A DNA stretch of 39,509 nucleotides from an uncultured bacterium (lineage in GTDB: Bacteria; Muiribacteriota; UBA6191), in the NCBI GenBank assembly GCA_964650625.1, contig CAZYUV010000002.1, positions 1-39,509 of the forward strand, read 5' to 3'. Made by a program: the position numbers and the translations under genes. The notes beneath the pieces were generated by a model, which had not been told where the DNA came from, did not search any database, and saw only the letters and a program-made list of their open reading frames with translations. Below, piece after piece: positions 3,778 through 39,509 of this stretch (position 1 is the first letter of the stretch; each line of letters begins with the position of its first letter).

Positions 3778-3779
3778 TC

Positions 3780-18760: not shown

Positions 18761-20722
18761 CTAGTCTTCCCAGCTTTCAGGTTCACCTTCCCAGTCCTCT
18801 TCTGCAAACTCGGCGTCAGCTTGCTCTGTCATAGTATCTTGAATATTACCAGTCTCCGAGTTAGTTGTATCAGATAACAGCGTCGTACTATCCGTTGATT
18901 TTACCTCTAAATTTTCCTCAACCGGTGGAGGCACTTCGTTACCCTCACTATCTATCCAAATCTCCCGAGGTGGAGCGATTACAAGTGTTTTGGCACATCT
19001 AAAGCCAATTAGCTCTGATATTGTTTCGGGATTCCTCGCATCACGAATGTAAACAGGATCGGCCGGTTCAGCCCAAGCACCACCTCGTACCACACGTTTA
19101 GTACCCTCCTCAGGTCCTTTTGGATCCTTCGGTTCGGAGTTTGAATAATACTTCGCATCATAATAATCCGACACCCACTCCTTAACTCCACCAAACATAT
19201 TAAATAAACCCTCATCTGTGGAGCCAGCTTTGAAATAATCAACTTCATACAATGTGTCTTCACCAAGCCATTCAAATTCAAATTGAGCAAGTTCAGGGTC
19301 AGGCGAAACATCTCCCCATGGATAGGGTCGCCCTTCGATACCCCGAGCGGCAAATTCCCATTCGGCTTCTGTTGGTAAGCGCTTGTCAAAATATTCACAA
19401 TATTCTTTCGCTTGATTCCAAGTGATGTTCATGATTGGTTGATTCATTATTCGATCAGTAGGTTTACCGTTCTTCCATAGATTATATTCAGGCTTATCAT
19501 TTAATCCAGGAGGGGCTGTTTTAGACTTCTCAACATAATCTAAATAATTTTGATTACTAACCTCATACTGATCCATATAAAAATCCGATAATTCGACCTC
19601 GTGGACAGAACGACAATCAGAACTGCACTCTTCATCTCCCATTGAAAAACTTACCTCTTGAAACAAATACATATTTTCGATTTCAACGATTTCTGATTCA
19701 ACGAGAATTTTTCGTGGCTTTGAATCTATTACCTCCCGTACAACTTTTCGAGACTTTTTCTTCTTCTTTTTTCCAAGCAAGGAATTTTCATATGCCATAT
19801 AACCGCCACCAGCTATTAATGCGAGTAGCAAAAATCCCTTTAAACCTGCGCTATTACCGTTAGCAGTGTTCACAGCTTTGTGTTTAGTAAATGAACGTAG
19901 AGCACAAGCAAATTTCTTAAGATCGGGCCTTTTTTTTGATTTTTTATTCAAGGCCTTTAGTATTAATTTGTCAGCTGCCTTAGGAATACCCTCTAATCCT
20001 AAAGACTTTTCTTCTTTATGTTTTTGCTCTTGTTCATCTCCCAGAAAAGGCGTTTCTCCTTCAAGTAGCTGAAAAAATAAACTAGCCAATTGATAAACTA
20101 AAACTTGTTCAGTAACTTCCAGTGAGGCATTTTCCCAACGTTCAGGAGGAGCATAGTATTTTTGCTGACTCTTGGGATAAAAAGTAGAGTCATCTGCACT
20201 TCCTAAAAGAGGTAAATGCATTACAACAAGATGACCCTCTTTCGTGTACATTAGATCCTGCGGAAAAATTTCAGAAACTGCCATCCCCTCTAAAAGAGCA
20301 CGGCGGTAAATCATTGCAGCTTCAGATATTAGAAAAGCGGCCTCATTAATTGGTACTTGATGATCAATAGAATTTGCTTGCAAACGTCTTGCAGTAATTC
20401 CATTAGGTCTTTCTAAAACTACTACAGGAATTGGATTTTTAATTCCTTCGATACTTACTTTCAGAATCTCCAGAACTTTCTGAAAACCATCGAAGGATAA
20501 GTCACGATATTTCAGAAATTCATTTTCGAAAACCGCAAAGTCTTCATCGGATTTAATTGTTACACCGTGATACACCCTCAGATAAACTCTGGATTTATCA
20601 TCACGATTTAGACCCATATAAATAGTTCCACCCGGAAAATCTCGCATTGGGTCAAGTACACGGTATCGTTTCTGAAAAACCGATTTTCTGGAGACAATTT
20701 TATCTTTGTTTTGCTGCTTCAT
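18761..20722 (-). CDS. Membrane protein: N-terminal degenerate Ser/Thr-kinase-like (pseudokinase) domain, one TM, C-terminal FGE-sulfatase domain, acidic tail
   Basis: The kinase-like fold retains YYAPPERW (APE region). It has VYLRV in place of VAIK, VSEIFPQDLMY in place of HRDLKPxN, and HLPLLG in place of DFG. The TM is GFLLLALIAGGGYMAY. FGE motifs are RLPTEAEWEFAARG, YPWG, RVVRGGAW and IGFRCAK. Confidence 0.6.
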   Translation of the reverse strand: MKQQNKDKIVSRKSVFQKRYRVLDPMRDFPGGTIYMGLNRDDKSRVYLRVYHGVTIKSDEDFAVFENEFLKYRDLSFDGFQKVLEILKVSIEGIKNPIPVVVLERPNGITARRLQANSIDHQVPINEAAFLISEAAMIYRRALLEGMAVSEIFPQDLMYTKEGHLVVMHLPLLGSADDSTFYPKSQQKYYAPPERWENASLEVTEQVLVYQLASLFFQLLEGETPFLGDEQEQKHKEEKSLGLEGIPKAADKLILKALNKKSKKRPDLKKFACALRSFTKHKAVNTANGNSAGLKGFLLLALIAGGGYMAYENSLLGKKKKKKSRKVVREVIDSKPRKILVESEIVEIENMYLFQEVSFSMGDEECSSDCRSVHEVELSDFYMDQYEVSNQNYLDYVEKSKTAPPGLNDKPEYNLWKNGKPTDRIMNQPIMNITWNQAKEYCEYFDKRLPTEAEWEFAARGIEGRPYPWGDVSPDPELAQFEFEWLGEDTLYEVDYFKAGSTDEGLFNMFGGVKEWVSDYYDAKYYSNSEPKDPKGPEEGTKRVVRGGAWAEPADPVYIRDARNPETISELIGFRCAKTLVIAPPREIWIDSEGNEVPPPVEENLEVKSTDSTTLLSDTTNSETGNIQDTMTEQADAEFAEEDWEGEPESWED

Positions 20723-23765: not shown

Positions 23766-26714
23766 CTATTCTTGATCAAAAATTAATTTTGTCTGGCAAC
23801 CTTTTCCCGAGACTATTTGAATACTTAAAACGCCGCCATGTTGCTCTAGTATGCGTTTGGCTACGTGAAGGCCCAAACCTAATCGCCCTTTGTGCGTACT
23901 AAAGCCTGCATTGATTACTTCATTACCCATATTTTTAGAAGAATTTGAAGAATTATCTTGAAAAACAAATTCCAGTTTCTTTCGTTTGCTTTTCTCGTCA
24001 TTAAATACTCTCGATTTGAGTTTCAGCGCTCCACCTTTACCTAGAAACTCTAGATGGTTTTCCAAGACTAAAATAAAAGCTTTTTTAAGAACAGACCAAT
24101 CGGCAGAATGTAAGAATTTAACTTCTTTCACATCCTTAGAAAACTTTATAGATTTCGGATCAATATTGCTGTTGATTCGCTCTGAAAGGTTAAAACAAAT
24201 CTTCGGGATTTTATTGTAAACGTCTTTGATAACAGCTTGCTGTAAAGGGATAGTTTTTTTAGAAACCTCAATAGCGTCATTACTTAATTTGATTAGTTCT
24301 AAACTGTACTCAAGTTTCTCAAACAAACGCTTAATATGAACCTTTAATCCGTCCGGACTTACGGTTTGCATGGATTTTAAATTATTCGCCGCTTCACGTA
24401 GAAGACCTGTTGCATCGGGAGTACTCAAACTAGTATTGTCCATTACATTCGTCTTGCCAAAACTTTTTAGTTCCGTCAGAATTTCATGAAATACCTTTGT
24501 ATCAAAAGACTGACTAATTCGACTAGTTGACTCCAAGCCAGTCGAAATACCGGCTTCATTAGCTTCCATTTTATCTAATTCGGCTTCCATAGAAACTACG
24601 TCATCCGATAAAAAGAACGGTGGTATCTGGCCGGGCATTCCAGGAACATACTTACCTTCTTTCTTACGATTATAAAGTTCTTTTGTAGTAAGTTTCCACG
24701 TACCTGATCTGATTAATATTTCATCAATCAAATCTTCCTCTCCTTCGGTCGCAGCCAGTTTATCTTCATTCACCGTCAGACGATTTACTTCCTCTATTGA
24801 AGAAACACCTTGCAGCGCACGAATTAAACCTGAATCACGCAATGACATCATGCCATCTTCCTTGGCAATGCGCTTTAGTTCTATGGTAGATAAACCCTTA
24901 TTAACCGCAATCGCCATATTTTCAGTCATTTTCATGACTTCATGAATAGCTAAACGTCCCTTGTATCCATTACCAAGGCATTCTTTGCAGCCCTTGCCTT
25001 TGTATAATGACAAGTTATCGATATTCATACCAGAGGCACCATCGAAAGCCATTAAACGATCATTAAAACCCGTAGCAATCAACTCGCGCTTCGAAAGCTT
25101 ATCAATTTGTTTACAATTTTCGCACAGACGACGCATTAATCTTTGAGCAAGAATTACTCGAACTGCTGAAGTAATTAAAAATCTATCAATCCCCATATTT
25201 AGCATTCTACCTATGGATTCGACAGCAGAATTGGTATGTAGGGTAGACAACACAAGATGACCAGTTAAAGCTGCTTTTAATGCAATTTGAGCGGTTTCCA
25301 TATCCCGAATTTCACCAATTAAAATAATATCCGGATCTTGACGCAAAAAAGCCTTAAGCACTTTACCAAAAGTCATGCCTATTTCGGGAATACATGCAGA
25401 CTGTGCTATACCGGGCAAATCATATTCAACTGGATCTTCGGCTGTTTGAATGTTTACTGAAGGTTTATTCAGTGAAACTAGAGAAGAATACAAAGTCGTA
25501 GTTTTACCTGATCCAGTAGGTCCCGTTACCAGTAAGATTCCATTGGGAGAGTCCAATCCATACTGCAACAAATCATAATTTTCTTTATCTAAGCCGAGTG
25601 AATTCAATCGTAACCGACTACCTGATTGATCAAGAATTCGCATAACAATTTTCTCGCCCCAAGATACTGGACACGTGGACACACGAACATCAACAACTTT
25701 ACCTTTCAGCGACATTCTGAACTTGCCATCTTGGGGCATGCGGACTTCCGAAATTTCAAGTCCTGCCATCACCTTTATTCTAGAAGAAATAGGACCGGCC
25801 AGCTTAGATGGAAAAGGACCAGCACCTTTACGTAACATGCCATCAATTCTGTATCGCATAAGCAACTGGTGCTCAAATGGTTCAATGTGGATATCTGAGG
25901 TGCCTTGCTCAACTGCTGAAGTCACCACTTTGTTCATTAGCGTTTTAATGGGAGCGGAGTTTTCATCGAAGTCTTCACTTGCCATTTCTTCCAAAGTACT
26001 ATCTTCCGCTTCATCGATCATTTCAATCAAACTGTCCGCCATGGCACCTTCACCATAGTGAGCTTCATAGCTATTCTTGAAATCTTTCTCTGAAACGATC
26101 ATAGGAACCACGCGTAATCCCGTAGACATTTCAATATCATCTACAACTAAAATGTTCTGAGGATCTACCATGGCTACAAAAAGTTGATTATCCTCAAGTT
26201 TCACCGGCATAACCATGTGTTTCTGAGCCATTTTTGCTGGAATTTTATCCATAATCAGTGGGTCTGGAGGTGTTTTAGAAAGCTTAATATAAGGAATCAT
26301 TAGCTGCTCGCCTACTGACTTAGCTAATTCATCATCAGTTACTATGCCTAGTTGAACTAATGCCTCGCCGATCCGAACACCATGAGCAACAGAAAACTCT
26401 AACGCTCCTGCAAGTTGTTCTTCAGTGAGAACACCAGCAGCCCGTAAAATATCTCCAAGTCGGCGCTTTTTGCCCGTCCTTTTTTTCTGAATCTTTTTTA
26501 TAGCTGCTTGGTCTTGAAGAGCAATTTTTAATTGAGGTTGTGATATATGGCCAAGCTCTAAAAGAACTAGACCTAATGGCTCCTCTCGATTTTGAGAAAC
26601 TTCGAGAGCTTCTTCCAACTGGTCTATGCTTATAAAGCCTTTATCTTTAAGAATTTCCCCGAGTGGAATTTCTTTATTTTGTAATTGCTGCCTAAGGTGT
26701 CGATCTATTTCCAT
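23766..26714 (-). CDS. PilB/GspE/MshE-family secretion ATPase with duplicated N-terminal MshEN modules and a C-terminal histidine-kinase-like (HATPase_c/GHKL) domain
   Basis: Walker A is VTGPTGSGKTTT. Other core motifs are DPDIILIGEIRDMETAQIA, GHLVLSTLHTNSA and the tetra-Cys motif CENC...CKEC. Four LGxxLxxxGxIxxxxLxxxLxxQ motifs lie in aa 17-137. The C-terminal ~330 aa end in N-box-like LVLENHLEF and G2-box GRLGLGLHVAKRILEQHGG. Confidence 0.8.
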   Translation of the reverse strand: MEIDRHLRQQLQNKEIPLGEILKDKGFISIDQLEEALEVSQNREEPLGLVLLELGHISQPQLKIALQDQAAIKKIQKKRTGKKRRLGDILRAAGVLTEEQLAGALEFSVAHGVRIGEALVQLGIVTDDELAKSVGEQLMIPYIKLSKTPPDPLIMDKIPAKMAQKHMVMPVKLEDNQLFVAMVDPQNILVVDDIEMSTGLRVVPMIVSEKDFKNSYEAHYGEGAMADSLIEMIDEAEDSTLEEMASEDFDENSAPIKTLMNKVVTSAVEQGTSDIHIEPFEHQLLMRYRIDGMLRKGAGPFPSKLAGPISSRIKVMAGLEISEVRMPQDGKFRMSLKGKVVDVRVSTCPVSWGEKIVMRILDQSGSRLRLNSLGLDKENYDLLQYGLDSPNGILLVTGPTGSGKTTTLYSSLVSLNKPSVNIQTAEDPVEYDLPGIAQSACIPEIGMTFGKVLKAFLRQDPDIILIGEIRDMETAQIALKAALTGHLVLSTLHTNSAVESIGRMLNMGIDRFLITSAVRVILAQRLMRRLCENCKQIDKLSKRELIATGFNDRLMAFDGASGMNIDNLSLYKGKGCKECLGNGYKGRLAIHEVMKMTENMAIAVNKGLSTIELKRIAKEDGMMSLRDSGLIRALQGVSSIEEVNRLTVNEDKLAATEGEEDLIDEILIRSGTWKLTTKELYNRKKEGKYVPGMPGQIPPFFLSDDVVSMEAELDKMEANEAGISTGLESTSRISQSFDTKVFHEILTELKSFGKTNVMDNTSLSTPDATGLLREAANNLKSMQTVSPDGLKVHIKRLFEKLEYSLELIKLSNDAIEVSKKTIPLQQAVIKDVYNKIPKICFNLSERINSNIDPKSIKFSKDVKEVKFLHSADWSVLKKAFILVLENHLEFLGKGGALKLKSRVFNDEKSKRKKLEFVFQDNSSNSSKNMGNEVINAGFSTHKGRLGLGLHVAKRILEQHGGVLSIQIVSGKGCQTKLIFDQE

Positions 26715-27565: not shown

Positions 27566-27964
27566 ATGGCAAAACTAAAAACATTAAAAGAAGCTGGCGA
27601 AGCAACCGGTATTGGGTTAAGCACTATTCGTAAGTATCTTAGCGAGTTTGGTGAATTAATCCCAGTGGAAAAAGGTCCTCGTAATGCTCTACTTTTCAGT
27701 ACTGAAGCTATCAAAGTACTAAAAAGTATTCGCGAGGCTTATCAAGATAAGAGAACTCATGAAGAAATCGTAGCTAAGTTATCTGGCAAAAGATTACCAC
27801 GCAGGAAAAAAGAGGAAGCTGTACAAGCTCCAGTAAAAAAAGCTGCTACTCGACGTAAGAAAGCTCCAGCTGTACCTGCGCCAGCTCCAGCTGTAAACCT
27901 AAATCGTGAAGAAACTATCATGAAAGGTTATGAAGATCAGCAAACTGATCAAGGTCTTTGGTAA
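27566..27964 (+). CDS. MerR-type HTH DNA-binding protein with basic Ala/Pro/Lys-rich (histone-H1-like) C-terminal tail
   Basis: TLKEAGEATGIGLSTIRKYLSEFGELIP fits the MerR/HTH_17 pattern. The tail is RRKKEEAVQAPVKKAATRRKKAPAVPAPAPAV. The gene has a strong RBS and its own terminator. Confidence 0.6.
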   Translation: MAKLKTLKEAGEATGIGLSTIRKYLSEFGELIPVEKGPRNALLFSTEAIKVLKSIREAYQDKRTHEEIVAKLSGKRLPRRKKEEAVQAPVKKAATRRKKAPAVPAPAPAVNLNREETIMKGYEDQQTDQGLW

Positions 27965-27981
27965 GATCAATAAATGATTAT

Positions 27982-28015
27982 AAGCCTCCCTTTGCTAAGG
28001 GGGGCTTTTTTGTTT
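27982..28015 (+). terminator. Rho-independent terminator
   Basis: AAGCCTCCC (27982-27990), loop TTTGCTAA, then GGGGGGCTT (27999-28007; one G-U pair), followed by TTTTTGTTTT. Confidence 0.7.
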
Positions 28016-28273: not shown

Positions 28274-29416
28274 ATGGTATTTGAGAGTTTCAACTGGCTA
28301 TTCTTTATTGCCTTAATTTTAGTACATTTTGTAGTTACAGGCCGAATTCGTTTGGGATTGTCGTATTTGAGTGGCATTTATTTCGTTTACGCCTATTCTC
28401 CAACAAGTCTAGCAATTTTATCTCCGGTGGCATTATTAATTATTGGGCCGTACCTATTTCAAGAATCTGAAACTCGAAATCAATTCTACGGTTTCATGTG
28501 GCTCGCCATGTGGGGGCTATACTATCTATTCGTTAGTAATCATAACTTTGATCAAAGGGAATACTTCCCATATGAAATTTTAGTGTTAGGAGCATACAAT
28601 CTGGCAAGGTTCTATCATGTATTTAATGATTTAAATTTCCTACGATACAGAGGACCAAAATGGGATGAAATTTTAGCCTATTTATTTTTTCCTCCAATCC
28701 TTTTTTGTGGTCCACTCGAGAAAATTCAAGAGTTTTTGAAATTTTACAAGAATCACGCATGCTATAAATCAATTGACTACAAAGGCTCTGCTAAGCTCCT
28801 TAGTATTGCGGTTTTTCAGGGAGCTATCGCAGAATTCTGCTCAACCGCACTGACTCCCGATTTAGTAGATTTTTCAGAAATAACACTATTCCCACTTATA
28901 GTCTATGTCTTGGGCATAGGATGGGAAATTCATTTTAGATTAGCCTCATACATCAATTTTACGCGTGGTTTCGCTTGGCTAATGGGTTATCATTTTGAAA
29001 AACCTAATTTCCAAGCACCTTATTCGGCTAGATCTGTGGCGGGATTCTGGTCACGTTGGAATATGTCACTTTCCAGATGGACAAGAGAGTATCTTTTCTA
29101 CGGAAATATAGAAGACTTTAGTGCAAAAAGAGTTATCATCGTTCTCGGTTTATTTTGGTGTTTAGTGGGTATACTTCATGGCATAAGTTGGCATTACTTC
29201 ACTTGGGGGCTTTTAATGGGCTCAACTATACTCTTTAATTTTGCCTACATTTATGCCCGCTATCACTGGGATTGGTTAATGAAAGTGGATGCTCAATTCA
29301 TACCTTTATCAGTCAAAAGAGCAGTCACAATTGTATGGATTCATGCATCTTGTATTTTGCTGGTTCCCGAATGCGAAGATATAATTAAGTCATTACATAG
29401 AATTCTCTCTCTTTAG
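28274..29416 (+). CDS. MBOAT-superfamily membrane O-acyltransferase-like protein (short, divergent), paralogue A
   Basis: Polytopic membrane protein. FFPPILFCGPLEKIQEF, SVAGFWSRWNMSLSRWTREYLFY and LVGILHGISWHYFTWGLLMG align by eye with the AlgI/DltB motifs (FWRRWHISLSxWxRDYxY; GGLWHGAxWxFxxWGxxHG). Confidence 0.65.
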   Translation: MVFESFNWLFFIALILVHFVVTGRIRLGLSYLSGIYFVYAYSPTSLAILSPVALLIIGPYLFQESETRNQFYGFMWLAMWGLYYLFVSNHNFDQREYFPYEILVLGAYNLARFYHVFNDLNFLRYRGPKWDEILAYLFFPPILFCGPLEKIQEFLKFYKNHACYKSIDYKGSAKLLSIAVFQGAIAEFCSTALTPDLVDFSEITLFPLIVYVLGIGWEIHFRLASYINFTRGFAWLMGYHFEKPNFQAPYSARSVAGFWSRWNMSLSRWTREYLFYGNIEDFSAKRVIIVLGLFWCLVGILHGISWHYFTWGLLMGSTILFNFAYIYARYHWDWLMKVDAQFIPLSVKRAVTIVWIHASCILLVPECEDIIKSLHRILSL

Positions 29417-29446
29417 AAACAAGCTGGAACAGGTTACAATATTCGT

Positions 29447-30478
29447 ATGGGTAAACTTCATAGATTTTTGTTGGGTTATAAAGAAGATCGCGGTGTTAAG
29501 GTTCTAAATTCTTTTAGTGACCTTAGTGAAGGTCCATATCGCGACTATGCCGCTGAGATTGTATTTACTTACATAAATAGTCTCAATAGAGCATTGATTT
29601 CACGATCAGCAGCCGAACTTCACAGGGAATATAACGAAAACCAGGCTCAAAAAGATTTAATACCTTTCCAGTTGGAAGCTAGTGCTATGGCTGCTGCTAT
29701 TAGTGATAATTATTTACCCTCCGTCGTTCCCTTAGTTAAGAGAGATTTTCTTGATAAATTAATAGAAGTCTTCGGTAACTCTTACAGAGAGATGATTTTA
29801 TTAGGTGCTGGACGCGGTATGGCAGAGATACCTAATTTTAACTTGCACACTATCGTAGCTAAGTATCCCCCAGAAGTACGCTGGTTAATAATGGATGGCT
29901 ACGGTTTCCAAAAGGGATTTTTTGAATTTCCGAAAAATCGAAATCAAATTTACATACCAAAATTTAAGTTCCCATATTTTCATAAAGCCTATGCACAAGG
30001 GTTAGGGAGGAGTTTAGGCTTTTATTTAGCTGATCAACCTAGCAAGATTAATAGCTACCTTGAACGAATCCAGGGAGCAGAAGCCTCAGACTTGTGGAGT
30101 GGTGTAGGTTCTGCAGTAGCGTTCTTAGGAGCATTAACTCCCGAGCAGTTTGATGAATGGTGTAATGCCAACTCTGAATATCGTCAATTCATAGCAGTGG
30201 GTTTGGCCCTTGCATGTCGATTACAAACACAATGCGGATGGCATTATGAAACAACAGATTCATATTGCAAAATGTTATGGGGTGTATCGGCACAAGAAAT
30301 AACAGATAGAGTCCTCAATCTGCAGGCACACCTCGAAGCAACCCAAATGCCTGATCAATCTTTATATGATGAGTATACAGACTATGAAAATCTTCGCGAT
30401 TTGATGAAAGAAGAATTTGTAGCTGGCACCTACTTGCAGAAGTTTCAGTCATCTTCCGCAGACGAATCTAGTGATTAA
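29447..30478 (+). CDS. Soluble hypothetical protein, DUF1702-like (assignment from memory of the family motif pattern)
   Basis: Repeated small-residue motifs occur at regular spacing: EASAMAAAISD, LLGAGRGMAEI, MDGYGFQKGFF, AQGLGRSLGFY, WSGVGSAVAFLG and IAVGLALACRL. It has no TM or signal peptide and starts 30 nt after paralogue A. Confidence 0.4.
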   Translation: MGKLHRFLLGYKEDRGVKVLNSFSDLSEGPYRDYAAEIVFTYINSLNRALISRSAAELHREYNENQAQKDLIPFQLEASAMAAAISDNYLPSVVPLVKRDFLDKLIEVFGNSYREMILLGAGRGMAEIPNFNLHTIVAKYPPEVRWLIMDGYGFQKGFFEFPKNRNQIYIPKFKFPYFHKAYAQGLGRSLGFYLADQPSKINSYLERIQGAEASDLWSGVGSAVAFLGALTPEQFDEWCNANSEYRQFIAVGLALACRLQTQCGWHYETTDSYCKMLWGVSAQEITDRVLNLQAHLEATQMPDQSLYDEYTDYENLRDLMKEEFVAGTYLQKFQSSSADESSD

Positions 30479-30505
30479 GTACCACTTTCAAAACTTTTGA
30501 CTACG

Positions 30506-31645
30506 CTAAAATTGCAGACCAAAGCGCGCTAGAAGTCTTGCATATTGCTCATACCAGTCTGGATACCACAAGGCCCATGAAAATAATACGAATATATGAG
30601 TCATCACTATTTTTATAATATCCGGAAAATAGCGAGTATCATAAATCATCAACCACCTAAATTTTAGCTTTAGATATATATATAAGAAATTCAATAAAAC
30701 TGCAGCACCATGCAAAAGTCCCCATAAGAAGAAACCCGAAGTCATATCTTTCATTATCCCAATAAGAACAAAATATATAAAAACGGCTGCCGCGAAATCC
30801 CGGGCTCGAAATTGAGTTAAAGATCTATAAAACAAATGACGTTTTAACCATCTAGTCAATGAAATATTGTAGTGAGTCCAAAAGCTCGCAACACTCTTAA
30901 CTTTATGAACTTGGTGAAAATTTGGCGTATTAAATGGATAACCCATCATAAATGACCATCCTCTTACAAAATCAAACCAAGAGGATAAACTCAACATTAG
31001 AGTGAAACCCAAAAGATATATTTTCATGAGCAATATGGTAGCTGATGCTTTATCAAAATCAATATCAGCTTCCACAATAGCCATTCGAATTATATATACA
31101 ATGCTTCCCTTCAGAATTCCGTAAACCCAAAGCTTTAAACCCGTTAACCATTGTCGAGGTTGCTGGTTAGTATGGTATTCGCGGAATTCTTGATATCTCT
31201 CCAATGGCCCACAGAACATAATGGGTGGATACCAGAGATAAGCGATAATATTCCAAATATCATCTCGATTAATAATAATAGAGCGTCTGTAAGCCACCAC
31301 ATGCATATATCGGAGTGTATTGATACCGAAAGCTGAAAATGCAAATGGAATGATATCTAAGCGACCTTCCCAAGCGTATAGCCAATCCCAGAAATAAATA
31401 ACGGAAATCAATAAAACAAGTAATAAAGTAGAGTGGTTGGATAAGACAAATCGGACAATAGGGCGAAAAGCCAACAAAACCAAGGAGGTACTACCTACTA
31501 ACATCAACCAAGCTGGTGGACAGAAATAAAATACGAAAACAGAGCCCGTTAATACAAATCCAATGGATCGAGATGCACCAGCTGGCAAAAAACTAGCCAA
31601 AAAAGCCAAGAAAAAAATATACCAGTTCTCTAAATGTATTACCAA
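30506..31645 (-). CDS. MBOAT-superfamily membrane O-acyltransferase-like protein, paralogue B (inverted relative to A)
   Basis: Same length and motif order as 28274-29416: LWYPPIMFCGPLERYQEF, SVASFWTHYNISLTRWLKRHLFY and LIGIMKDMTSGFFLWGLLHGA. Confidence 0.65.
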   Translation of the reverse strand: MVIHLENWYIFFLAFLASFLPAGASRSIGFVLTGSVFVFYFCPPAWLMLVGSTSLVLLAFRPIVRFVLSNHSTLLLVLLISVIYFWDWLYAWEGRLDIIPFAFSAFGINTLRYMHVVAYRRSIIINRDDIWNIIAYLWYPPIMFCGPLERYQEFREYHTNQQPRQWLTGLKLWVYGILKGSIVYIIRMAIVEADIDFDKASATILLMKIYLLGFTLMLSLSSWFDFVRGWSFMMGYPFNTPNFHQVHKVKSVASFWTHYNISLTRWLKRHLFYRSLTQFRARDFAAAVFIYFVLIGIMKDMTSGFFLWGLLHGAAVLLNFLYIYLKLKFRWLMIYDTRYFPDIIKIVMTHIFVLFSWALWYPDWYEQYARLLARFGLQF

Positions 31646-31865
31646 AAGTCGTACCCGCCATCCAATCTATCGAGATTACAGACAAGTTCTGATAGAAAAA
31701 GATTATTTTTGTCACCTATCTGCCGTGGAACAAAGGAATCTGTTCCAATATAATCTTTCAAGCGTTCAAATGTATAATTTCTGCACCAAATTGCAGCAAG
31801 GAACTGTTCTTTGTCAAACCCCAAATCAGAGGTTTATAATGATCACCTGCTTGAAGGAGGTTTCC

Positions 31866-33101
31866 ATGCAGCAGGTTTATATAGGGCCATCTCACTCAAT
31901 GTCTTGGCACGGTTTCGATAATGAAAAAACATTTGAATCGATTTTCGAGGGGAAAAGCCCCTTGAGCGGCATTCTAAATGTTATCGAAGAAGCTCAAAAA
32001 AATAATGTTCCTGGTAGAATTCCATGGGATTTATTCAAAGATTTCGATATTGACAACAAATGCGTCAAAAATGGACCCGTAGAAGCTCGGTATGCATACA
32101 TTTGTACGAAAATGCTTCTCGAAAAATTCCCACAGATCCTAGACTACCGCAAAGACATGGGACTGTATGTTGGAACGATGAATAATTATTACGGATTAGT
32201 CGGTCTCAGAAATGGATATCGAGTGTGTGTAAACGAGCAATTTACTTACGATAAACGTACATTTGAAAGTAAGATAGGTTTGGGCTTTTCTTTTGTACAT
32301 CCCATGGTACCTGTATATAAAATACCCAACAATTGTGTCGCAAACATAGCATTAGATTGGGAATTAAGAGGTGCCAACGCTAACTACTTCGGTGAAGATT
32401 CATCGTCTACAGCCTTACACGAATCTTATTTAAAAATACGAGCAGGTCGCTTGAAACAAACGCTCACCGTAACCTCAAATCATTTGTTCCTAAACTATCT
32501 GGATTTTCTATTTACAGACTTGCCAACTCTCACGAAGAAAGAGCCCGCCAAGCTAATTCCAGAGAAAGATAACTTTTTCTTTCCTTCAGAATGGGCCTCG
32601 TCCTATCTTCTTTTCAACGAAGAACAGAGCGATACGCTTGGAATAGAAAGACAAGCACAAATTCTCGCATCTCATCAAACGAGCTTTCAAGGTGTATATA
32701 TGCGCAGGAATTTGAAGAAGGAGACCGTGGAACAAGTAGTAAAAGCTTGTCTTAAAAAAGCTCAGTTAGAGTTCTCAGATTTGGATCTCGTAGTTTTTGA
32801 CAATGTTGATAAAGACAAATCTCAAATCGCAGCTTTAACAGAACTTCGAGGAAATGGTAAAACTAAGCTACTGACACCTTCATTATTCATCGGACATCCA
32901 ATATGCGCTAATGGAGGCGCAATGATTTCGACAGCTCTCATGTGTTTAAAATATCAGAGCGTATTTTCTTCTTATCTAGAAAGTATCCCGGAAAAACCTG
33001 AACTCACATCTAAAAAAGAAGCTCTCAATATAAAATATGTCCTAGTCTTATCACAAGGGCTCAATAACAGCTTACATGGCTTAATTCTGGAGAAAGCATA
33101 A
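31866..33101 (+). CDS. Ketosynthase-fold protein lacking the Cys-His-His triad (chain-length-factor/KS-beta-like)
   Basis: The start is re-assigned to ATG 31866, in frame with the 31563 ORF. A GAAGGAGG RBS at 31853-31860 lies 5 nt upstream. The longer ORF would overlap the MBOAT-B start on the opposite strand. KS-like MQQVYIGPSHSMSWHG N-terminus. GEDSSSTALHES stands where KS enzymes have xTACSSSLxA, VVFDNVDKD where they have HGTGT, and IGHPICANGG near the C-terminus. Confidence 0.6.
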   Translation: MQQVYIGPSHSMSWHGFDNEKTFESIFEGKSPLSGILNVIEEAQKNNVPGRIPWDLFKDFDIDNKCVKNGPVEARYAYICTKMLLEKFPQILDYRKDMGLYVGTMNNYYGLVGLRNGYRVCVNEQFTYDKRTFESKIGLGFSFVHPMVPVYKIPNNCVANIALDWELRGANANYFGEDSSSTALHESYLKIRAGRLKQTLTVTSNHLFLNYLDFLFTDLPTLTKKEPAKLIPEKDNFFFPSEWASSYLLFNEEQSDTLGIERQAQILASHQTSFQGVYMRRNLKKETVEQVVKACLKKAQLEFSDLDLVVFDNVDKDKSQIAALTELRGNGKTKLLTPSLFIGHPICANGGAMISTALMCLKYQSVFSSYLESIPEKPELTSKKEALNIKYVLVLSQGLNNSLHGLILEKA

Positions 33102-33838
33102 TGGATAAAACATGCCTAATTGTAGGTGGCTCGCGGGGTATAGGAAAAGCCACGGCTGAACGATTCCTCAAAGATGGTTGGAAAGTAGGAATCTCTTACA
33201 ACAGTACTCAACCCGATTGGATTGAAAGTTATCCCGAAGAACAACGTTGGGCAGGCCAACTTGATGTAACAAATGGGGAACAAATTCCTGATTTTTTAAG
33301 CCAATATAAAGAATTCAGTGGAAAAAAGATCGACGTTTTTATCTACAATACCGGAATCACTATCGATGCCTTAACCATACATGGAAAAAATGAGGAATTC
33401 GATAAAGTACTCAGCACCAATTTACGCGGTGCTTATATCTTCCTTCGGGAGGTTGGTCATTTCATGTTCTTTAAGAAACGGGGTAAACAGTTCTACATTT
33501 CATCTGTAGCTGCAAAACGGGGTGGCCGTGGGCAATTAAGTTATGCGGCCTCGAAAGCGGGACTTGAAGCGTTAGTTCGAGTTGGTGCTCAGGAGTTTTC
33601 GCGAGCGGGGGTAATGATAAATGGAGTCGCTCCCGGGGTTACTGAAACTGATATGACAGAACAAGTGATGGAATTTGTCAAAGGTAACAAGAAAGGTGAT
33701 GGATTATTCGACAGAATAGCGATGCGTAGAACGGCAAAACCGGAAGAAATCGCTAACTTTTTATTTTCTCTGTCGCAAGAAGAAATAACTTACATAACTG
33801 GTCAAACGTTCAATATTGATGGCGGCTACATGCTCTGA
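33101..33838 (+). CDS. fabG: SDR-family 3-oxoacyl-ACP reductase (FabG-like ketoreductase)
   Basis: VGGSRGIGKA (TGxxxGxG), NTGI (NNAG-like), and the catalytic S...YAASKAGL (YxxxK). The start ATG overlaps the upstream TAA (TAATG at 33099-33103). Confidence 0.85.
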   Translation: MDKTCLIVGGSRGIGKATAERFLKDGWKVGISYNSTQPDWIESYPEEQRWAGQLDVTNGEQIPDFLSQYKEFSGKKIDVFIYNTGITIDALTIHGKNEEFDKVLSTNLRGAYIFLREVGHFMFFKKRGKQFYISSVAAKRGGRGQLSYAASKAGLEALVRVGAQEFSRAGVMINGVAPGVTETDMTEQVMEFVKGNKKGDGLFDRIAMRRTAKPEEIANFLFSLSQEEITYITGQTFNIDGGYML

Positions 33839-33849
33839 AAGTTAGTTAA

Positions 33850-36800
33850 ATGCAAGATTTCCTTAACATCGAAATGACTGACGAGCAGATCATGGATCTG
33901 CTGGTAGAAGCTTTGCAAGATATAACAGGTTTTGATGAAAATATAACCAAAGAAACACTTCTAATAGATGAACTCGGATTAGATTCGTTAGGTTTCCTAG
34001 ATTTGTTTTTCACTATACAAACATCGATCCAACGGGAAGTAACCAACGAACAAATGCGTAATCTCATTCTTGAGGAGCTTGATCTCGACACTGATCCCAA
34101 TGTTGCCAAATTATCTGAAGGCGAAAAAGATCGAATCGCCTATCCTAGACTGAAAGTTCAGAATTTTTTCAACATCGTTAAAAAACAATTGAATCCTGAA
34201 CTAGCTGGCATTGATCTTGAAGCCACATCGGATCGTATTTTTGAACCTCAACAACTTGAATCGTTTTTGCAGGCAAATTTCGAACAAATTAAGCAAGACA
34301 AAATTTCCGAGCAAATTCAAGCTAACAATATCACTGATCCCAGAATGCAGGAGATTGTTCGAAACTCATTTGATGCTATTGATCCTGATAAAATGCAATC
34401 ACTTTTTGCTGATAAAAAGCTTATTGCTAACGTGGTAAAAAAATATCTAAAAGATCGTATGAATCTGGATGACCCCGAAAATTTGCAGCGTTTTTTAATG
34501 GGAGAGAACAAAAATCAACTTCAAGTTAAAGCACTTCTTCAAAGCGATGATAAAGGCCGTAGTATTTTCGATATGTTTTTAGATCAAAACAAGAGCAAAA
34601 TTTTTGATCTTTATCTTGATGGAGATGAGCAAGATGTTCTCAAAGACACAATTATTCGCAAAACACTGGAAGAACGCAAAGCAGAGGTAATTAGCGAGTT
34701 AAGTTCTAGCCCAGATCAAAATCTGGTGATGAAAATTTTTGATCGTCGACGGAAAGACATAATGGAAGTTATGGTTGAACGCAGTCGTCAACAGATTTTA
34801 GACAAAGCTCTCGAAGTCAAACGTGAGCTATTTGAGTCTGAATTTAATAATCAAGAGGCAATTAAGGATTTTAATCAATTTGTTTGGGATAACTTAGCTA
34901 ATATCACCCCCGAAATTATGAAGGGGGAGATGCAGTTAATGGAAGAAGAAATTTTATCTCAAGGCTTTCAGCTACTTTCACAAGACAACGATGAAGATAC
35001 TGATCTTAAAGTTATTTTTGAAGAAGAGAAAGAAGCTCTGTTTGCAGATATTATCGAACGGGAAAAATCCACAATTTATAAACAGATGGTACTCTCAGAC
35101 GAAGAAAAAGAAAGTCTCATGGAGCAACTGGTTAACGATGACAAGGTGGGTCTCTTTAACCAATTCATATCTGAAAATAAAGTGAGTCTTAAAAGAGAGG
35201 TGCAACAGCGTGGGCTACTAGATGAAAATAGCGATTTTGCAACGCAATTACTTGCCGATGAGAGCGTTCAACAAGATCTTATGAAAACCTTAATCGATAG
35301 TCAGATTGGTAGCGTTTTCGAAGAAGAGGTTAATCGACAAAGTGAATTGGTTGATGATGCTGAGGTTATAGCATTTCTGAAAGACACTTTCCTCACAAAT
35401 GAGTTTCGCCAAGATAAAATCCAAAGTGCTATTGGTATGGGAAATGTACAGGGTGATCTTGTAGAAGAATTCATGAAGAACAACTTCGATCGTATCGCCA
35501 TGGAAGAAACTCAAAGATTACTTGCTGATAAAGAACTCCGTAATCAATTAGTTCAGGACTATATCAAAGAGAATTATGACCCCATGGAGGCAATGCAACT
35601 CAATGATCCCGAAAAAATGAAAGAGCTGCAGCAAAAAATTACCGAAAAATACATGCAAGATAATCTTGATGAAATTATTTCTCGTTACATGAACGATTAC
35701 ATGAACGAAATGATGGATGCCATTCCAGAAGAAGAAATAGAGTTAGATGGTGATGTTCAAGAAGAATTCATGAAGAAATTTATGGCTCGGATGGAAGATG
35801 AAGAGGAAACAGAAGAAACACCAAAGCCTAGCACAGTAGTTGAACGATTTATAGAAACTTACGGACTAACTGACCCCATGATTCAAGTATTCGTTGAAAA
35901 CAACTTCGACGATATTTTTGGAATTATCAAAAGAGTTTCTGGACTACAGGTTAACAATGAAGCCATTGAACAATTCGTTGTCTCAGAATTTCCGCTAAAG
36001 ATCGCTTTGTATTTTCACAGTATCATTGATGACCTCGACTTCGACCACGATGTACGCCAGACCTACACCAAGTACTTCGTAGAAAATAATATGAACGAAA
36101 TCATGGAAGTTACCATGCAGCGTCAATTCGAATTCATGCTCGGAGAAGAGTTCGACCTTGACTGGGATCGATATACACATGAGCTTAACGAATGTGTTAA
36201 AGATGAACTTAAACGAATGCATAAAGAACTCGACCCGAAGGAAGTAGAATCAAAATTAGATCAATTATTCAAAGGATTAAAATATGATTGGAATCTTTTT
36301 CTAGATGTATTAAAAAATGACATCAATGATGAAGAGCGAAACAAAATTCTTCTTTATTGGTTGAAAGACATCAACGATATAGAGCAAATTCAAATTCAAT
36401 ATATTAGAGATTTCCTACAGGATAAGGAAGAAGAAATCCGATCACACCCTCTTGGTCAGTGGATAGATTTACTAGAAGGAAAAGCAACTGCAAAAGAAGT
36501 GACGGAGCAGTACGAAACCGCCTTCAGAAGTCATCTTATTAGTAATTTCGAAGAAATTCTTAAGGATTTTGACCCTACTAGTAATACCAAAATTGATCTC
36601 CAACTTAAGAAGGCTATGACTGAGCAATGTATTCGTATTTTTCTTCCAACAAGCATTAGTGTTGTAATTAATTCACATATTGATGAACTACGCGATTACA
36701 TAACTCAATTTCCACTGCCACCACCTAGAACGATTAATGATCTTCTAGACTATCTGCTGCCTGAATCTACCAAGGCTACCTATTCTGATATTCGTACAAG

Positions 36801-37722
36801 ACTTAGTAGTAAGTTTAAGTCGCTTGCTAAGAAGCATGAGATTTCTAAAGATTTGTTAATGATTTTTATTTATCACTACAGAAAAGATTACCGTAGATTA
36901 ATTCAAGAACTTTGTGAATTAATCATCTCGCAATATATAAAAATTGGTAGAGAGCATATGATCGGACTGATTACTAACTTTAGTTGGGAGAAACAGTCAA
37001 ATTTAATTATGGGCCTTTTGAAGAATGAGTTATCAGAAGAAGAAATTCTGATTGCTTCGATGTCATCCTTTCTAAAGGATAATCAACGCAAAATGGATAA
37101 ATTCACCACAGATGAAATTTTTGCAATGTTTGAAGGAGATAAATTTTTAAAATTTATGGAAGATATGGTGCAAGAAAACATTGATAACGTGCTTGCCAAA
37201 TCTGAAGAAGCTGAATTCGAACTAACAGATTATGTTTCTCCGAAGAAGTACTCACAGCTAAAATATATTACTGATTTTTTACAGGAATCGCATATGAGTC
37301 AGATCAATGGATTCTTTGGGCATTTACAGCATCGTCTGAGCCTTAAACCGAAAATGTTCCTGGAATTGGGCGAAGAGATCGCCTCTGAGTTAATTGTAAA
37401 TCTCAAAAAAGAGGAATTGGGCCTAAAGGACCGGCTCATTGCATACACCCAACGTAAAGTCATGGAAGATTACGATTTTATGATCATGGAACGGGTCGCA
37501 GAAAAGCTTGAGGATCAACAATTTATTGACAAGCTAGTAATGGATATTCGAGATGTATACAGTAAACGAAATGTATTTAGATTATTTAGAACAGGAATAC
37601 GAGCTGTGGTTCTTCAAACTGAGTCTATAGACTGGGTTCATGAACGAAATCTAATACAAAAAGTATCCTATGAGTTATTGGATGAAATCATCGCTGAAAT
37701 GGCACAGGGTATAAAGGTCTAA
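33850..37722 (+). CDS. 1290-aa protein: N-terminal acyl carrier protein domain fused to ~1200 aa acidic, helical, motif-repeating region of unknown function
   Basis: ACP signature LIDELGLDSLGFLDLFF, with the phosphopantetheine Ser46 codon TCG at 33985-33987. The remainder has no TM and is very E/D/K/N/Q/I/M-rich, with recurring xxNN[FLM][DE]xI motifs. Confidence 0.7.
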   Translation: MQDFLNIEMTDEQIMDLLVEALQDITGFDENITKETLLIDELGLDSLGFLDLFFTIQTSIQREVTNEQMRNLILEELDLDTDPNVAKLSEGEKDRIAYPRLKVQNFFNIVKKQLNPELAGIDLEATSDRIFEPQQLESFLQANFEQIKQDKISEQIQANNITDPRMQEIVRNSFDAIDPDKMQSLFADKKLIANVVKKYLKDRMNLDDPENLQRFLMGENKNQLQVKALLQSDDKGRSIFDMFLDQNKSKIFDLYLDGDEQDVLKDTIIRKTLEERKAEVISELSSSPDQNLVMKIFDRRRKDIMEVMVERSRQQILDKALEVKRELFESEFNNQEAIKDFNQFVWDNLANITPEIMKGEMQLMEEEILSQGFQLLSQDNDEDTDLKVIFEEEKEALFADIIEREKSTIYKQMVLSDEEKESLMEQLVNDDKVGLFNQFISENKVSLKREVQQRGLLDENSDFATQLLADESVQQDLMKTLIDSQIGSVFEEEVNRQSELVDDAEVIAFLKDTFLTNEFRQDKIQSAIGMGNVQGDLVEEFMKNNFDRIAMEETQRLLADKELRNQLVQDYIKENYDPMEAMQLNDPEKMKELQQKITEKYMQDNLDEIISRYMNDYMNEMMDAIPEEEIELDGDVQEEFMKKFMARMEDEEETEETPKPSTVVERFIETYGLTDPMIQVFVENNFDDIFGIIKRVSGLQVNNEAIEQFVVSEFPLKIALYFHSIIDDLDFDHDVRQTYTKYFVENNMNEIMEVTMQRQFEFMLGEEFDLDWDRYTHELNECVKDELKRMHKELDPKEVESKLDQLFKGLKYDWNLFLDVLKNDINDEERNKILLYWLKDINDIEQIQIQYIRDFLQDKEEEIRSHPLGQWIDLLEGKATAKEVTEQYETAFRSHLISNFEEILKDFDPTSNTKIDLQLKKAMTEQCIRIFLPTSISVVINSHIDELRDYITQFPLPPPRTINDLLDYLLPESTKATYSDIRTRLSSKFKSLAKKHEISKDLLMIFIYHYRKDYRRLIQELCELIISQYIKIGREHMIGLITNFSWEKQSNLIMGLLKNELSEEEILIASMSSFLKDNQRKMDKFTTDEIFAMFEGDKFLKFMEDMVQENIDNVLAKSEEAEFELTDYVSPKKYSQLKYITDFLQESHMSQINGFFGHLQHRLSLKPKMFLELGEEIASELIVNLKKEELGLKDRLIAYTQRKVMEDYDFMIMERVAEKLEDQQFIDKLVMDIRDVYSKRNVFRLFRTGIRAVVLQTESIDWVHERNLIQKVSYELLDEIIAEMAQGIKV

Positions 37723-37725
37723 ACT

Positions 37726-38169
37726 ATGCGCTACATATTTTTACAACAATTCGAAATTCAGGATGACGGGGATACAATTAAAGGAACGCTTCCCGTTACC
37801 AAGGATTGGGAAGTTTTTCAAGATCACTTTCCAGGATTTCCGATAATGCCCGGGGCTTTGATACTGGAGACCATGGCTCAACACTGCGTTGCTTTGATGC
37901 TCGAGCATAAGCAAGGTGATGATCCGGTCGTTCCTACACTAATTCAGGTAGATAGGGCTAAATTTAAAGAACCAGTATTCCCCGATTGTACATTGGATAT
38001 AGAAGTCAAAAAGGAAATTGCTATGTATCCAAACTTTAAATTTTCTGCTAAAGCTAGCGTTAACAATAGAGTTGTCAGTGAAGCTCGACTAACTATGGCC
38101 TTTAGAGATGTTGGTATGGGGCAAGGTCTAGATTTTATGGGTTTCTTTTTCAAAGGAATGCAAAAGTAG
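37726..38169 (+). CDS. FabZ/FabA-like hot-dog fold 3-hydroxyacyl-ACP dehydratase
   Basis: FQDHFPGFPIMPGALILETMAQ matches the FabZ HFPxxPxxPGVLxxEAxAQ active-site region. 147 aa. It starts 3 nt after the upstream stop. Confidence 0.8.
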   Translation: MRYIFLQQFEIQDDGDTIKGTLPVTKDWEVFQDHFPGFPIMPGALILETMAQHCVALMLEHKQGDDPVVPTLIQVDRAKFKEPVFPDCTLDIEVKKEIAMYPNFKFSAKASVNNRVVSEARLTMAFRDVGMGQGLDFMGFFFKGMQK

Positions 38170-38177
38170 GTGGTTAT

Positions 38178-39473
38178 ATGAACAGAGTTTTTGTTACAGG
38201 CTATGGCTTATGTTGTGGAAACGGTTTAGATACTAATGAGTACTGGGACAACTGTTCCTCACTGAAAACAGGTTTACGTGTACATGAGCCCTGGTCACAT
38301 TTAGACATAAAAATTGTAGGGCTTGTACCAGAAGAACGCTTCACGGAAAAAGAGAAAAAGGAAGTCGAATATTTCAGGGCTCGAAGAACAGTTTTTACTC
38401 GAAGAGCGCTCACAGAGGCTCTAGAAATGGCGGGAGTAAATCCTCAAGATGAAGAGGAAGTAGGCGTGTTTTTGGGCGTAGACTTTTATTCGGGTGACGA
38501 ATATTTTCTTTATGGTGTTATTAATTACTATCCTCAAGGCAAAGGCGAAGATCGGTGGGAAGAGTTTGATTTAGGCTACAGCATATCGCGCTTCTTAAAG
38601 ACCGGTATGAAAAAAGACATCAACACTGAATTATTGAAAAGCCAGACTTTTTTTGGTTATCAACCTTGGATCGATAGATATATAAGAAGTTTAATCAAAA
38701 AAGATGGTACCTCAAGAATCATCAATAATCTGTGCGTCAGTAGCGTCCAATCTATCGGAGAAGCTTTTCAATCAATCCAAAATGGCGACCAAGACGTTGT
38801 GATTTCTGGGGGTCTGGAGGAGTATTCCTTCGTGAGTGGTTTCACCTTCTCGAAACTAGGCGTTTACGTCAATGCCGAAGACCCTAGTGACTCTTGTACT
38901 CCCTTTGACGCAAGGCGAAAGGGTACAGTGCTGGGTGAAGGCGCAGGCATCCTTATTCTTGAATCTGAAGAACATATGAAAAAACGAGGCGCCACTCCAA
39001 TTGCTGAAATCTTAGGGTATTCCACAACCAATAATGTTTATCACGTAACTAATTCACCCACCCAAGGTGAGGGTTTAGCGCAATCAATGGAAGAAGCTCT
39101 TGAAGACAGCGGTTTATCTGAATCGGATATAGATGTCGTAGTTGCTCATGGAACGGGCACTTATGTAAATGATAGTTCAGAATGTAATGCCATAAATACG
39201 GTGTTACCTAGCAAACCATTGGTTCACTCAATGAAATCTTATGTGGGCCATACTTTATCAGCAGCAGGAGTTATTAATGTAATTACCGGTCTGTTAGAAA
39301 TGAAACACAGCTTCGTTCTTCCTACTCTATTCTTAAAAAAACCTGGTAAAAATTGTGATGTAAATCATGTAAAACCGGAAGGTGAAGAGAAAGAGGTGAA
39401 TGCGTTTTTAACTAATGCAGCCGGATTCGGTGGCTTCAACGGTACACTAGTGGTAAAAAAGGCCGATGAATAA
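38178..39473 (+). CDS. Beta-ketoacyl-ACP synthase (KAS I/II-type, catalytically complete)
   Basis: Active-site NNLCVSSVQSIGEA (Cys186 codon TGC at 38733-38735), VVAHGTGTYVNDSSE (His 1), KSYVGHTLSAAG (His 2) and a C-terminal NAAGFGGFNGTLVV. An AGGTGG RBS lies upstream. Confidence 0.85.
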   Translation: MNRVFVTGYGLCCGNGLDTNEYWDNCSSLKTGLRVHEPWSHLDIKIVGLVPEERFTEKEKKEVEYFRARRTVFTRRALTEALEMAGVNPQDEEEVGVFLGVDFYSGDEYFLYGVINYYPQGKGEDRWEEFDLGYSISRFLKTGMKKDINTELLKSQTFFGYQPWIDRYIRSLIKKDGTSRIINNLCVSSVQSIGEAFQSIQNGDQDVVISGGLEEYSFVSGFTFSKLGVYVNAEDPSDSCTPFDARRKGTVLGEGAGILILESEEHMKKRGATPIAEILGYSTTNNVYHVTNSPTQGEGLAQSMEEALEDSGLSESDIDVVVAHGTGTYVNDSSECNAINTVLPSKPLVHSMKSYVGHTLSAAGVINVITGLLEMKHSFVLPTLFLKKPGKNCDVNHVKPEGEEKEVNAFLTNAAGFGGFNGTLVVKKADE

Positions 39474-39509
39474 TGGATGAAAAACTCCAATTAAAGAAAG
39501 ATATAGATC
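39473..39509 (+). CDS. Start of a further operon gene (partial, MDEKLQLKKDID...), function unknown
   Basis: The ATG at 39473 overlaps the KS stop (TAATG), the same coupling seen at 33099-33103. Only 12 codons are visible. Confidence 0.25.
   Translation, partial: MDEKLQLKKDID

Follow-up and report, generated by a model that had tools for sequence, protein, structure and literature searches.

A lineage-restricted locus that joins a putative type II highly reducing synthase to diiron and MBOAT-family proteins in uncultured bacteria

At one end of a 39,509-nucleotide stretch of DNA from an uncultured bacterium (GTDB lineage Bacteria; Muiribacteriota; UBA6191; assembly GCA_964650625.1, contig CAZYUV010000002.1, positions 1 to 39,509 of the forward strand; the whole of this stretch is called the window below), genes for two proteins of the membrane-bound O-acyltransferase (MBOAT) superfamily and for a DUF1702 protein face an operon that encodes a ketosynthase (KS), a KS-like partner (KSβ), a ketoreductase (KR), a long acyl carrier protein (ACP) and a dehydratase (DH). 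What could such a locus make, and do its two divergent units serve one purpose? Comparison with related loci from genomes and metagenomes indicates, by conservation, co-occurrence and rarity, that the locus is one conserved, lineage-restricted biosynthetic unit. As to its chemistry, we favour with moderate confidence a composite pathway, in which a dissociated (type II) highly reducing KS/KSβ synthase is combined with modification by a diiron enzyme and with offloading by an MBOAT.

One conserved, lineage-restricted unit

An earlier, sequence-only reading of the window had picked out eight genes, and the open reading frame (ORF) listing and the translation of the window place all eight at the coordinates it gave. 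MBOAT-A (28274-29416) and the DUF1702 protein (29447-30478) are encoded on the forward strand and MBOAT-B (30506-31645) on the reverse strand. Across a divergent intergenic region of 220 bp (31646-31865), the operon runs on the forward strand through KSβ (31866-33101), KR (33101-33838), the long ACP (33850-37722), DH (37726-38169) and KS (38178-39473). The junctions, too, are as described: stop and start codons overlap as TAATG at 33099 and 39471, the remaining gaps within the operon measure 11, 3 and 8 nt, and the divergent gap has the extent given above. The mechanical ORF of KSβ opens at 31563, inside MBOAT-B; its likely start is the ATG at 31866, which has GGAGG in front of it and would yield a protein of 411 aa, a length like that of orthologues elsewhere.

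The operon continues past the end of the window. A ninth gene, for diiron protein 1, opens at 39473, and the window holds its first 12 codons (39473-39509, forward strand) before cutting it off. The reading of this fragment, MDEKLQLKKDID, is the start of positions 2869-4710 of a TARA Oceans scaffold (L001) that encodes a KS identical to that of the window. Past the KS this scaffold encodes the diiron protein, 613 aa in full, then a second long ACP of 1156 aa and then a second diiron protein. A relative on a 115-kb contig (L003/L005), in which the long ACPs are ~60% and the enzymes 72-93% identical to those of the window, extends the picture. Its gene order is MerR-family regulator, MBOAT-A, DUF1702, MBOAT-B (reverse strand), KSβ, KR, long ACP 1, DH and KS, followed by diiron protein 1, long ACP 2, diiron protein 2, two small membrane proteins of 209 and 183 aa, and a flavin halogenase-like gene on the reverse strand. 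Following the operon downstream, as the sequence-only reading had advised, has thus brought in diiron enzymes, a second long ACP, small membrane proteins and halogenase-like genes. The same reading had seen no enoyl reductase (ER), acyltransferase (AT), thioesterase (TE) or phosphopantetheinyl transferase (PPTase) in the window. This absence stands, and we found none of the four in the downstream extension or in any related locus.

We scanned one genome for each of 185,579 species and recovered ten loci in eight uncultured genomes, whose records read Candidatus Cloacimonadota bacterium, UBP17 or simply bacterium; a scan of metagenomes added nine further contigs. Constant across these loci is a core of KSβ, a long ACP of 733-1359 aa, DH, KS and the diiron protein, with KR as a less regular member; downstream of it there usually come one or two pairs of genes for small membrane proteins (~200 and ~185 aa). 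The order KSβ-KR-long ACP-DH-KS-diiron is kept even in lineages whose diiron proteins are 38-53% identical to that of the window. The families of the long ACP and the diiron protein are extremely scarce: a collection of 5.8 billion protein clusters contains 22 relatives of the former and 17 of the latter, and an exhaustive HMMER scan of 1.84 billion representatives gave 12 hits for the diiron protein.

An MBOAT gene adjoins the core in six of the seven lineages, in differing arrangements. It lies upstream and divergent in the clade of the window and in L015, upstream and co-oriented in L007/L029 and L026, and downstream, within the operon and after the small membrane proteins, in L006/L016 and L018. 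Because of this recurrence we take the two divergent units to belong together, and a tie between MBOAT unit and KS operon passes the neighbourhood comparison that the sequence-only reading had asked for. As a constant partner the DUF1702 gene fails it, being confined to the window's own clade.

On one metagenomic contig (P0006; JGI 3300072015), the run of core operon genes is interrupted by genes for a GIY-YIG nuclease and for a bAvd-like protein, a kind of accessory that belongs to diversity-generating retroelements, and a UnbV_ASPIC gene lies upstream of the core.

Synthase, carrier, diiron and MBOAT proteins

The FabF-type KS (PF00109 and PF02801) aligns to the FabF structure 5sxo (E=1e-59) with Cys186, His324 and His358 as its Cys-His-His triad. 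This triad is invariant in seven orthologues, and the protein carries a family-specific N-terminal insert. KSβ, the chain-length-factor (CLF)-like protein, falls below the Pfam thresholds and is related to the KS family by profile-profile alignment (hhalign, 93% probability). Where the Cys motif would be it has an invariant FGEDSS, and another residue stands at the position of the first His, but it retains the GH motif; orthologues occur in every related locus. KR, a FabG-like 3-ketoacyl-ACP reductase of the short-chain dehydrogenase/reductase type, scores 148.8 bits with PF13561, 188.8 bits with TIGR01830, which is below the equivalog cut-off, and 139.6 bits with the flexirubin FlxB model, whose cut-off is 340. 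For DH, a FabZ/ApeI-like 3-hydroxyacyl-ACP dehydratase, the scores are 63.3 bits with PF07977 and 82-83 bits with the FabZ models, again below cut-off, and the ApeI-like family PF22818 was recorded for the same protein. All the enzymes that resemble those of fatty acid synthase (FAS) score well below the curated equivalog cut-offs. A KS with its triad, a Cys-less partner, a discrete ACP, and KR and DH without ER are the components expected of a type II (dissociated) highly reducing KS/CLF system, and the proteins are predicted to form one. The sequence-only reading had proposed the same set of activities on a dedicated carrier, and motifs and profiles bear it out.

Only the first ~100 residues of the 1290-aa long ACP are carrier protein, and the copy in the window gives weak ACP hits; its paralogue on the TARA scaffold, long ACP 2 (1156 aa), passes PF00550. 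A DSL serine, the putative phosphopantetheine-attachment site, is invariant across the long ACPs, and in a modelled 733-aa orthologue the N-terminus has the ACP fold, with template modelling (TM) scores of 0.7-0.8 to real ACPs. The rest of the protein is an acidic (pI ~4.5), all-helical extension. The fold search returned no match for this helical body, its nucleoporin and karyopherin hits having a probability of <=0.1. The best conserved part of the protein is its centre (residues ~440-800), which argues that the extension is functional; perhaps it serves as a docking scaffold.

Two side observations concern the architecture of this protein. In its centre a motif, (F/Y)xxxN(F/M)(D/E)x(I/V), recurs at ~60-80-residue spacing, for example at residues 541, 601, 681 and 743, and this spacing hints at helical repeat modules. 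One related contig (L018, 447-3044) encodes upstream of the core an extra, short ACP of 200 aa, which has the module conserved at the N-terminus of the long ACPs and nothing else, and which is accompanied by an extra KS and KR; it suggests that the first ~200 residues of the long ACP could be a self-contained unit.

The diiron protein takes its name from a site, E395 / E426xxH429 / E478 / E508xxH511, that is invariant in 16 sequences. The AlphaFold2 model, with its helices modelled, has a predicted local distance difference test (pLDDT) score of 87.8, and the best PDB neighbours found for it by fold search are soluble acyl-ACP desaturases, then ribonucleotide reductase R2 and R2lox. At the level of families the protein scores 14.4 bits with PF03405, below the cut-off of 22.7; a few remote relatives do hit this family, one of them (P0087) passing at 30.4 bits. 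Sequence searches of the PDB with the single sequence and with a profile gave nothing useful. The model points to an acyl-ACP-desaturase-like ferritin-fold enzyme. The gene duplicates together with that of the long ACP, so that long ACP 1 and diiron protein 1 are matched by a second pair, long ACP 2-diiron protein 2, and this co-duplication would fit an enzyme that acts on an ACP-bound chain.

The two MBOAT proteins are not equivalent. Both pass PF03062, whose cut-off is 27 bits (MBOAT-A 34.6 bits, MBOAT-B 45.5 bits), and both stay far below the cut-off of 375 bits of the DltB equivalog TIGR04091 (70.8 and 49.8 bits). MBOAT-A is a DltB-like protein that matches the DltB structure 6bug (E=6.5e-14); its ILHGIS aligns to the histidine of FWHGIT in DltB, so that it has His at the catalytic position, and it has Asn at the RWN position. 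The other lineages have a single MBOAT, and it clusters with MBOAT-A. MBOAT-B is a divergent paralogue, 28% identical to MBOAT-A and without a sequence match in the PDB, and it has Lys in place of the catalytic His. The idea of an MBOAT pair, as first put forward, is therefore right in that there are two members of the superfamily, and is to be amended in that they are one likely enzyme and one altered paralogue; MBOAT-B is likely a non-catalytic or altered partner. The inverted repeat seen at the DNA level between the two genes reflects only their shared motif.

Enediyne-type accessory proteins, halogenase-like genes and flanking genes

The DUF1702 protein (PF08012, 126.7 bits) is a soluble homologue of E3/UnbL. 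DUF1702 has been labelled an enediyne biosynthesis protein (PMC7692728). The minimal cassette of the enediyne polyketide synthase (PKSE) comprises PKSE, a TE and three further genes that are conserved but have no known function, and the product of PKSE and TE is a linear heptaene (PMC9992847). Among distant DUF1702 genes we find the order DUF1702, FG-GAP/UnbV_ASPIC, RnfD-like membrane protein and iterative type I polyketide synthase (PKS) on two contigs (L020, L019), and a cassette of DUF1702, PKS and 4HBT thioesterase on a third (L021). The DUF1702 protein of the window is 27-29% identical to the E3 proteins of these cassettes, which places it with E3/UnbL, and the polyene-type logic that the sequence-only reading saw in the operon gains some support from this membership, since the cassettes of enediyne E3 process a polyene.

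E4/UnbV and E5/UnbU are absent from the window. In a sister lineage (L007/L022/L029), two E4 (UnbV) and two E5 (UnbU) homologues lie directly beside the type II core. For E4 the full-length identity is 30% (E=3e-91); of the E5 copies, one shares 46% of its residues with a cassette E5. A third lineage, that of contig P0006, has a UnbV_ASPIC gene as well. With E3 in the clade of the window and E4/E5 in the sister lineage, homologues of all three accessory proteins, otherwise known only from the pathways of enediyne antibiotics, thus accompany a dissociated synthase. PKSE itself, an iterative type I protein (KS-AT-ACP-KR-DH-PPTase), is not in the window, where the enzymes are all discrete. Nor does any related locus have a 4HBT-type gene for the E10 hot-dog thioesterase, the sole hot-dog protein being the FabZ-like DH. 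A literature search found nothing relevant on SgcE3-5, on UnbV_ASPIC, or on enediynes in combination with type II PKS and acetylenase.

A halogenase-like flavoprotein is encoded in the window itself, 18 kb upstream of the locus (8794-10635, forward strand; PF04820, 53.8 bits). It matches the structure of PltA (5dbj, E=5e-16) and aligns to the carrier-protein-dependent halogenases PltA, Bmp2, CndH and CmlS. The WxWxIP motif, as WIWVIP, stands at residue 239 in all five homologues; together with the FAD-binding fold and the Lys region it marks the protein as a putative flavin-dependent halogenase. In L010/L026 and L012 the core has orthologues of this protein, at 58-62% identity, as its immediate neighbours. 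As they adjoin the KS/diiron core elsewhere, the cluster may reach further upstream in the window, and the protein is a candidate accessory enzyme of the pathway. Convergent with its gene is one for an S-adenosylmethionine methyltransferase (10860-11855, reverse strand) that weakly resembles cyclopropane-fatty-acid synthases.

The small membrane proteins that follow the core match no Pfam or NCBIfam family, and their alignments are almost without invariant residues. In two loci (L022, 19274-20446; L029, 20366-21538), a 390-aa protein that resembles the ~200-aa small membrane protein sits between the E4/E5 genes and another halogenase-like gene; it may be a fusion of the two small membrane proteins.

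Upstream of MBOAT-A lies a gene for a MerR-family regulator (27566-27964, forward strand; PF13411, 24.4 bits), found in the same position in L003, L004 and L007, and its product is a candidate regulator of the locus. Directly after it, and before MBOAT-A, there is a strong terminator-like hairpin (27982-28007, forward strand) with an 11-bp stem and a T tract, and the two genes are therefore probably transcribed separately. Within the divergent intergenic region, a match to TTGTCA-18-TATAAT at 11 of 12 positions was noted at 31811-31840 (forward strand); promoter-like and terminator-like sites are no commoner than in shuffled sequence.

Further upstream, a gene on the reverse strand (23766-26714) encodes a 982-aa type II/IV secretion ATPase (MshEN and T2SSE) with a C-terminal HATPase_c fusion, and in L003, too, a conserved T2SSE/MshEN-HATPase_c gene lies upstream next to the locus. 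Two large proteins (12272-16246, forward strand; 18761-20722, reverse strand) have FGE-sulfatase (formylglycine-generating-enzyme-like) domains, one of them with DUF4116 repeats as well and the other with a kinase-like region. The sole Rfam match in the window is a tRNA gene (12042-12113, reverse strand).

A proposed pathway, its rivals and known systems

From this gene content and these catalytic motifs we infer a sequence of chemical steps, with a substrate for each enzyme and a product. The FabF-type KS and its Cys-less partner would elongate a chain bound to the ACP domain at the N-terminus of the long ACP, and KR and DH would process each β-keto group. Because no ER is encoded, the chain would probably stay unsaturated and polyene-like. 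The diiron enzyme, which is always paired with a long ACP, would oxidise the ACP-bound chain by desaturation, acetylenation, hydroxylation or halogenation, and the halogenase-like flavoproteins and the E3 homologue (E4/E5 in the sister lineage) would tailor it further. With no thioesterase at hand, the chain would then move from the ACP to the DltB-like MBOAT-A, and from there onto a membrane or extracytoplasmic acceptor; such a hand-off from carrier to MBOAT is conceived by analogy with the Dlt system. MBOAT-B and the two small membrane proteins are possibly partners in this release. To our knowledge this would be the first polyketide-like chain to be offloaded by an MBOAT in place of a thioesterase. 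A bolder version of the pathway makes the locus a type II counterpart of the enediyne/polyyne cassette. A conjugated polyene, built on a scaffold-like giant ACP, would be turned by the diiron enzymes, the E3/E4/E5-type proteins and flavin halogenases into a halogenated polyyne-like chain, which an MBOAT would anchor to the envelope where a thioesterase would otherwise release it. We put this forward as a tentative idea and think it, as it stands, unlikely to be correct in full.

Several observations weigh against the composite pathway. The diiron protein found fold matches of moderate quality (TM ~0.5, E ~5e-3), and its N-terminal 380 residues are unexplained. The KS is nearest to FabF, a FAS enzyme, and not to the known polyene KSs, and a housekeeping enoyl reductase could saturate the chain. 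As for release, MBOAT-B lacks the catalytic His, with Lys there in all three orthologues (the Asn is kept), and the MBOAT of L018 carries Gln at that position; two minimal loci (L014, L017) have no adjacent MBOAT or KR. The enediyne-type genes are split, DUF1702 occurring only in the clade of the window and E4/E5 only in other clades, and no single locus was seen with the full E3-E4-E5 set. Finally, the locus resembles core genome, with its conserved MerR and ATPase neighbours, and would fit a structural lipid as well as a secondary metabolite.

The last of these points leads to the main rival, a lineage-specific primary lipid pathway. The operon would here be a specialised FAS-II branch, its chain saturated by a housekeeping enoyl reductase; the diiron protein would be an ordinary O2-dependent acyl-ACP desaturase, the MBOAT would acylate an envelope polymer or lipid, and E3/E4/E5 and the halogenase would be incidental. 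The affinities of the enzymes speak for it, KS being nearest to FabF and KR and DH to FabG and FabZ, and so does the acyl-ACP desaturase as the nearest fold and family of the diiron enzyme. In addition, every recovered genome of the lineage has the locus with conserved flanks (MerR and the T2SSE-type ATPase). However, a Cys-less KS partner is a polyketide trait rather than one of FAS, the core enzymes lie far below the FAS equivalog cut-offs, and ordinary FAS has no need of a dedicated ACP of 730-1360 aa. Moreover, the core repeatedly has E3, E4/E5 and halogenase-like genes as neighbours, in several arrangements that are independent of one another. We regard this reading as a possible one, though doubtful. 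Plain membership of FAS was considered and rejected.

Far less probable is an aryl-polyene or flexirubin-type pigment cluster, that is, a KS/CLF/KR/DH system for an aryl-capped polyene attached to outer-membrane lipid. The ApeI-like hit of DH to PF22818 and the hit of KR to the FlxB model (139.6 bits) would fit, and halogenases occur in some aryl-polyene clusters; yet that score falls far short of the 340 bits that the FlxB model requires, and the long ACP, the diiron enzyme, the MBOAT and the DUF1702 protein are foreign to this type of cluster. The candidate was rejected when neither the window nor the 10-kb flanks of the related loci yielded an aryl-starter ligase, a lysophospholipid acyltransferase (LPLAT), a glycosyltransferase or a LolA-like/MMPL export gene. 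The sequence-only reading had already set the locus apart from the canonical aryl-polyene set, and rightly so, given that the starter and export genes of that set were not found. Very improbable, too, is a chance encounter of two unrelated neighbours, in which the MBOAT-A/DUF1702/MBOAT-B unit has no connection with the KS operon and the divergence of the two is coincidental; DUF1702 is indeed missing from most related loci and an adjacent MBOAT from L014 and L017, but in six of the seven lineages an MBOAT has remained next to the core although the genes were rearranged. Dlt-type D-alanylation, or another aminoacylation of a cell-surface polymer, we can all but dismiss: DltB is the best characterised relative of MBOAT-A and a carrier protein is encoded nearby, but a DltA-type adenylating ligase, DltD and DltX are missing, the DltB model gives 70.8 bits against its cut-off of 375, and the carrier gene lies within an operon of KS, KR and DH enzymes.

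The locus matters in several respects. The roles of E3, E4 and E5 are poorly understood, and a synthase made up of separate, tractable KS, KR, DH and ACP proteins could ease the dissection of their chemistry. Three families with almost no relatives are added to those known: the 613-aa diiron enzyme, an ACP with a conserved helical extension of 650-1250 aa, and the paired small membrane proteins. Lastly, an uncultured marine lineage may owe to this locus an envelope lipid that is characteristic of it.

We know of no characterised cluster family that would match the locus gene for gene; it can be set beside four known systems. With the Dlt system it shares, in MBOAT-A, the DltB core and the position of the catalytic His, a carrier protein in the same locus and the idea of transfer from carrier to MBOAT across the membrane, as DltB takes its acyl group from DltC. 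It differs in that equivalents of DltA, DltD and DltX were found neither in the window nor in the related loci, in that the second MBOAT has no catalytic His, and in its cargo, which would be a polyketide-like chain and not D-alanine. The soluble acyl-ACP desaturases (PF03405; the castor Δ9 and ivy enzymes) are the best structural neighbours of the diiron protein, whose C-terminal half has the same four-helix-bundle E/ExxH/E/ExxH site and whose gene adjoins that of an ACP; the diiron protein differs in its low identity (~13%, below the Pfam threshold) and in an extra helical N-terminal domain of 380 aa.

With the highly reducing type II PKS of the aryl-polyene and ishigamide type, the locus has in common a discrete KS, a Cys-less partner, a FabG-like KR, a FabZ/ApeI-like DH, a dedicated ACP and the lack of ER. 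The locus departs from these systems in lacking enzymes for an aryl or other starter, an LPLAT, a glycosyltransferase and Lol-like export genes, in having an ACP of 9-17x the normal length, and in counting a conserved diiron enzyme and an MBOAT among its members.

The enediyne PKSE cassette differs in architecture, its synthase being replaced here by separate KS, KSβ, KR, DH and ACP proteins without a hot-dog thioesterase, and diiron enzymes, giant ACPs, MBOAT and small membrane proteins being added; the host, moreover, is an uncultured marine lineage and not an actinomycete. What it shares with the locus is an E3-family protein, joined in the sister lineage by E4/E5 beside the same core, and the combination of KS, KR and DH without ER, which in PKSE leads to a conjugated polyene. 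Both have membrane and secreted proteins as accessories, and halogen chemistry is plausible in both, given the halogenase-like genes found here; a cryptic iodination for enediynes is said to have been described by Gui et al. in 2024. The enzymology of the locus is of known kinds, with a highly reducing PKS of type II, a diiron oxidase and an MBOAT; new are the way in which these are combined, three protein families that are nearly orphans, and the company that enediyne accessory genes keep here with a dissociated synthase.

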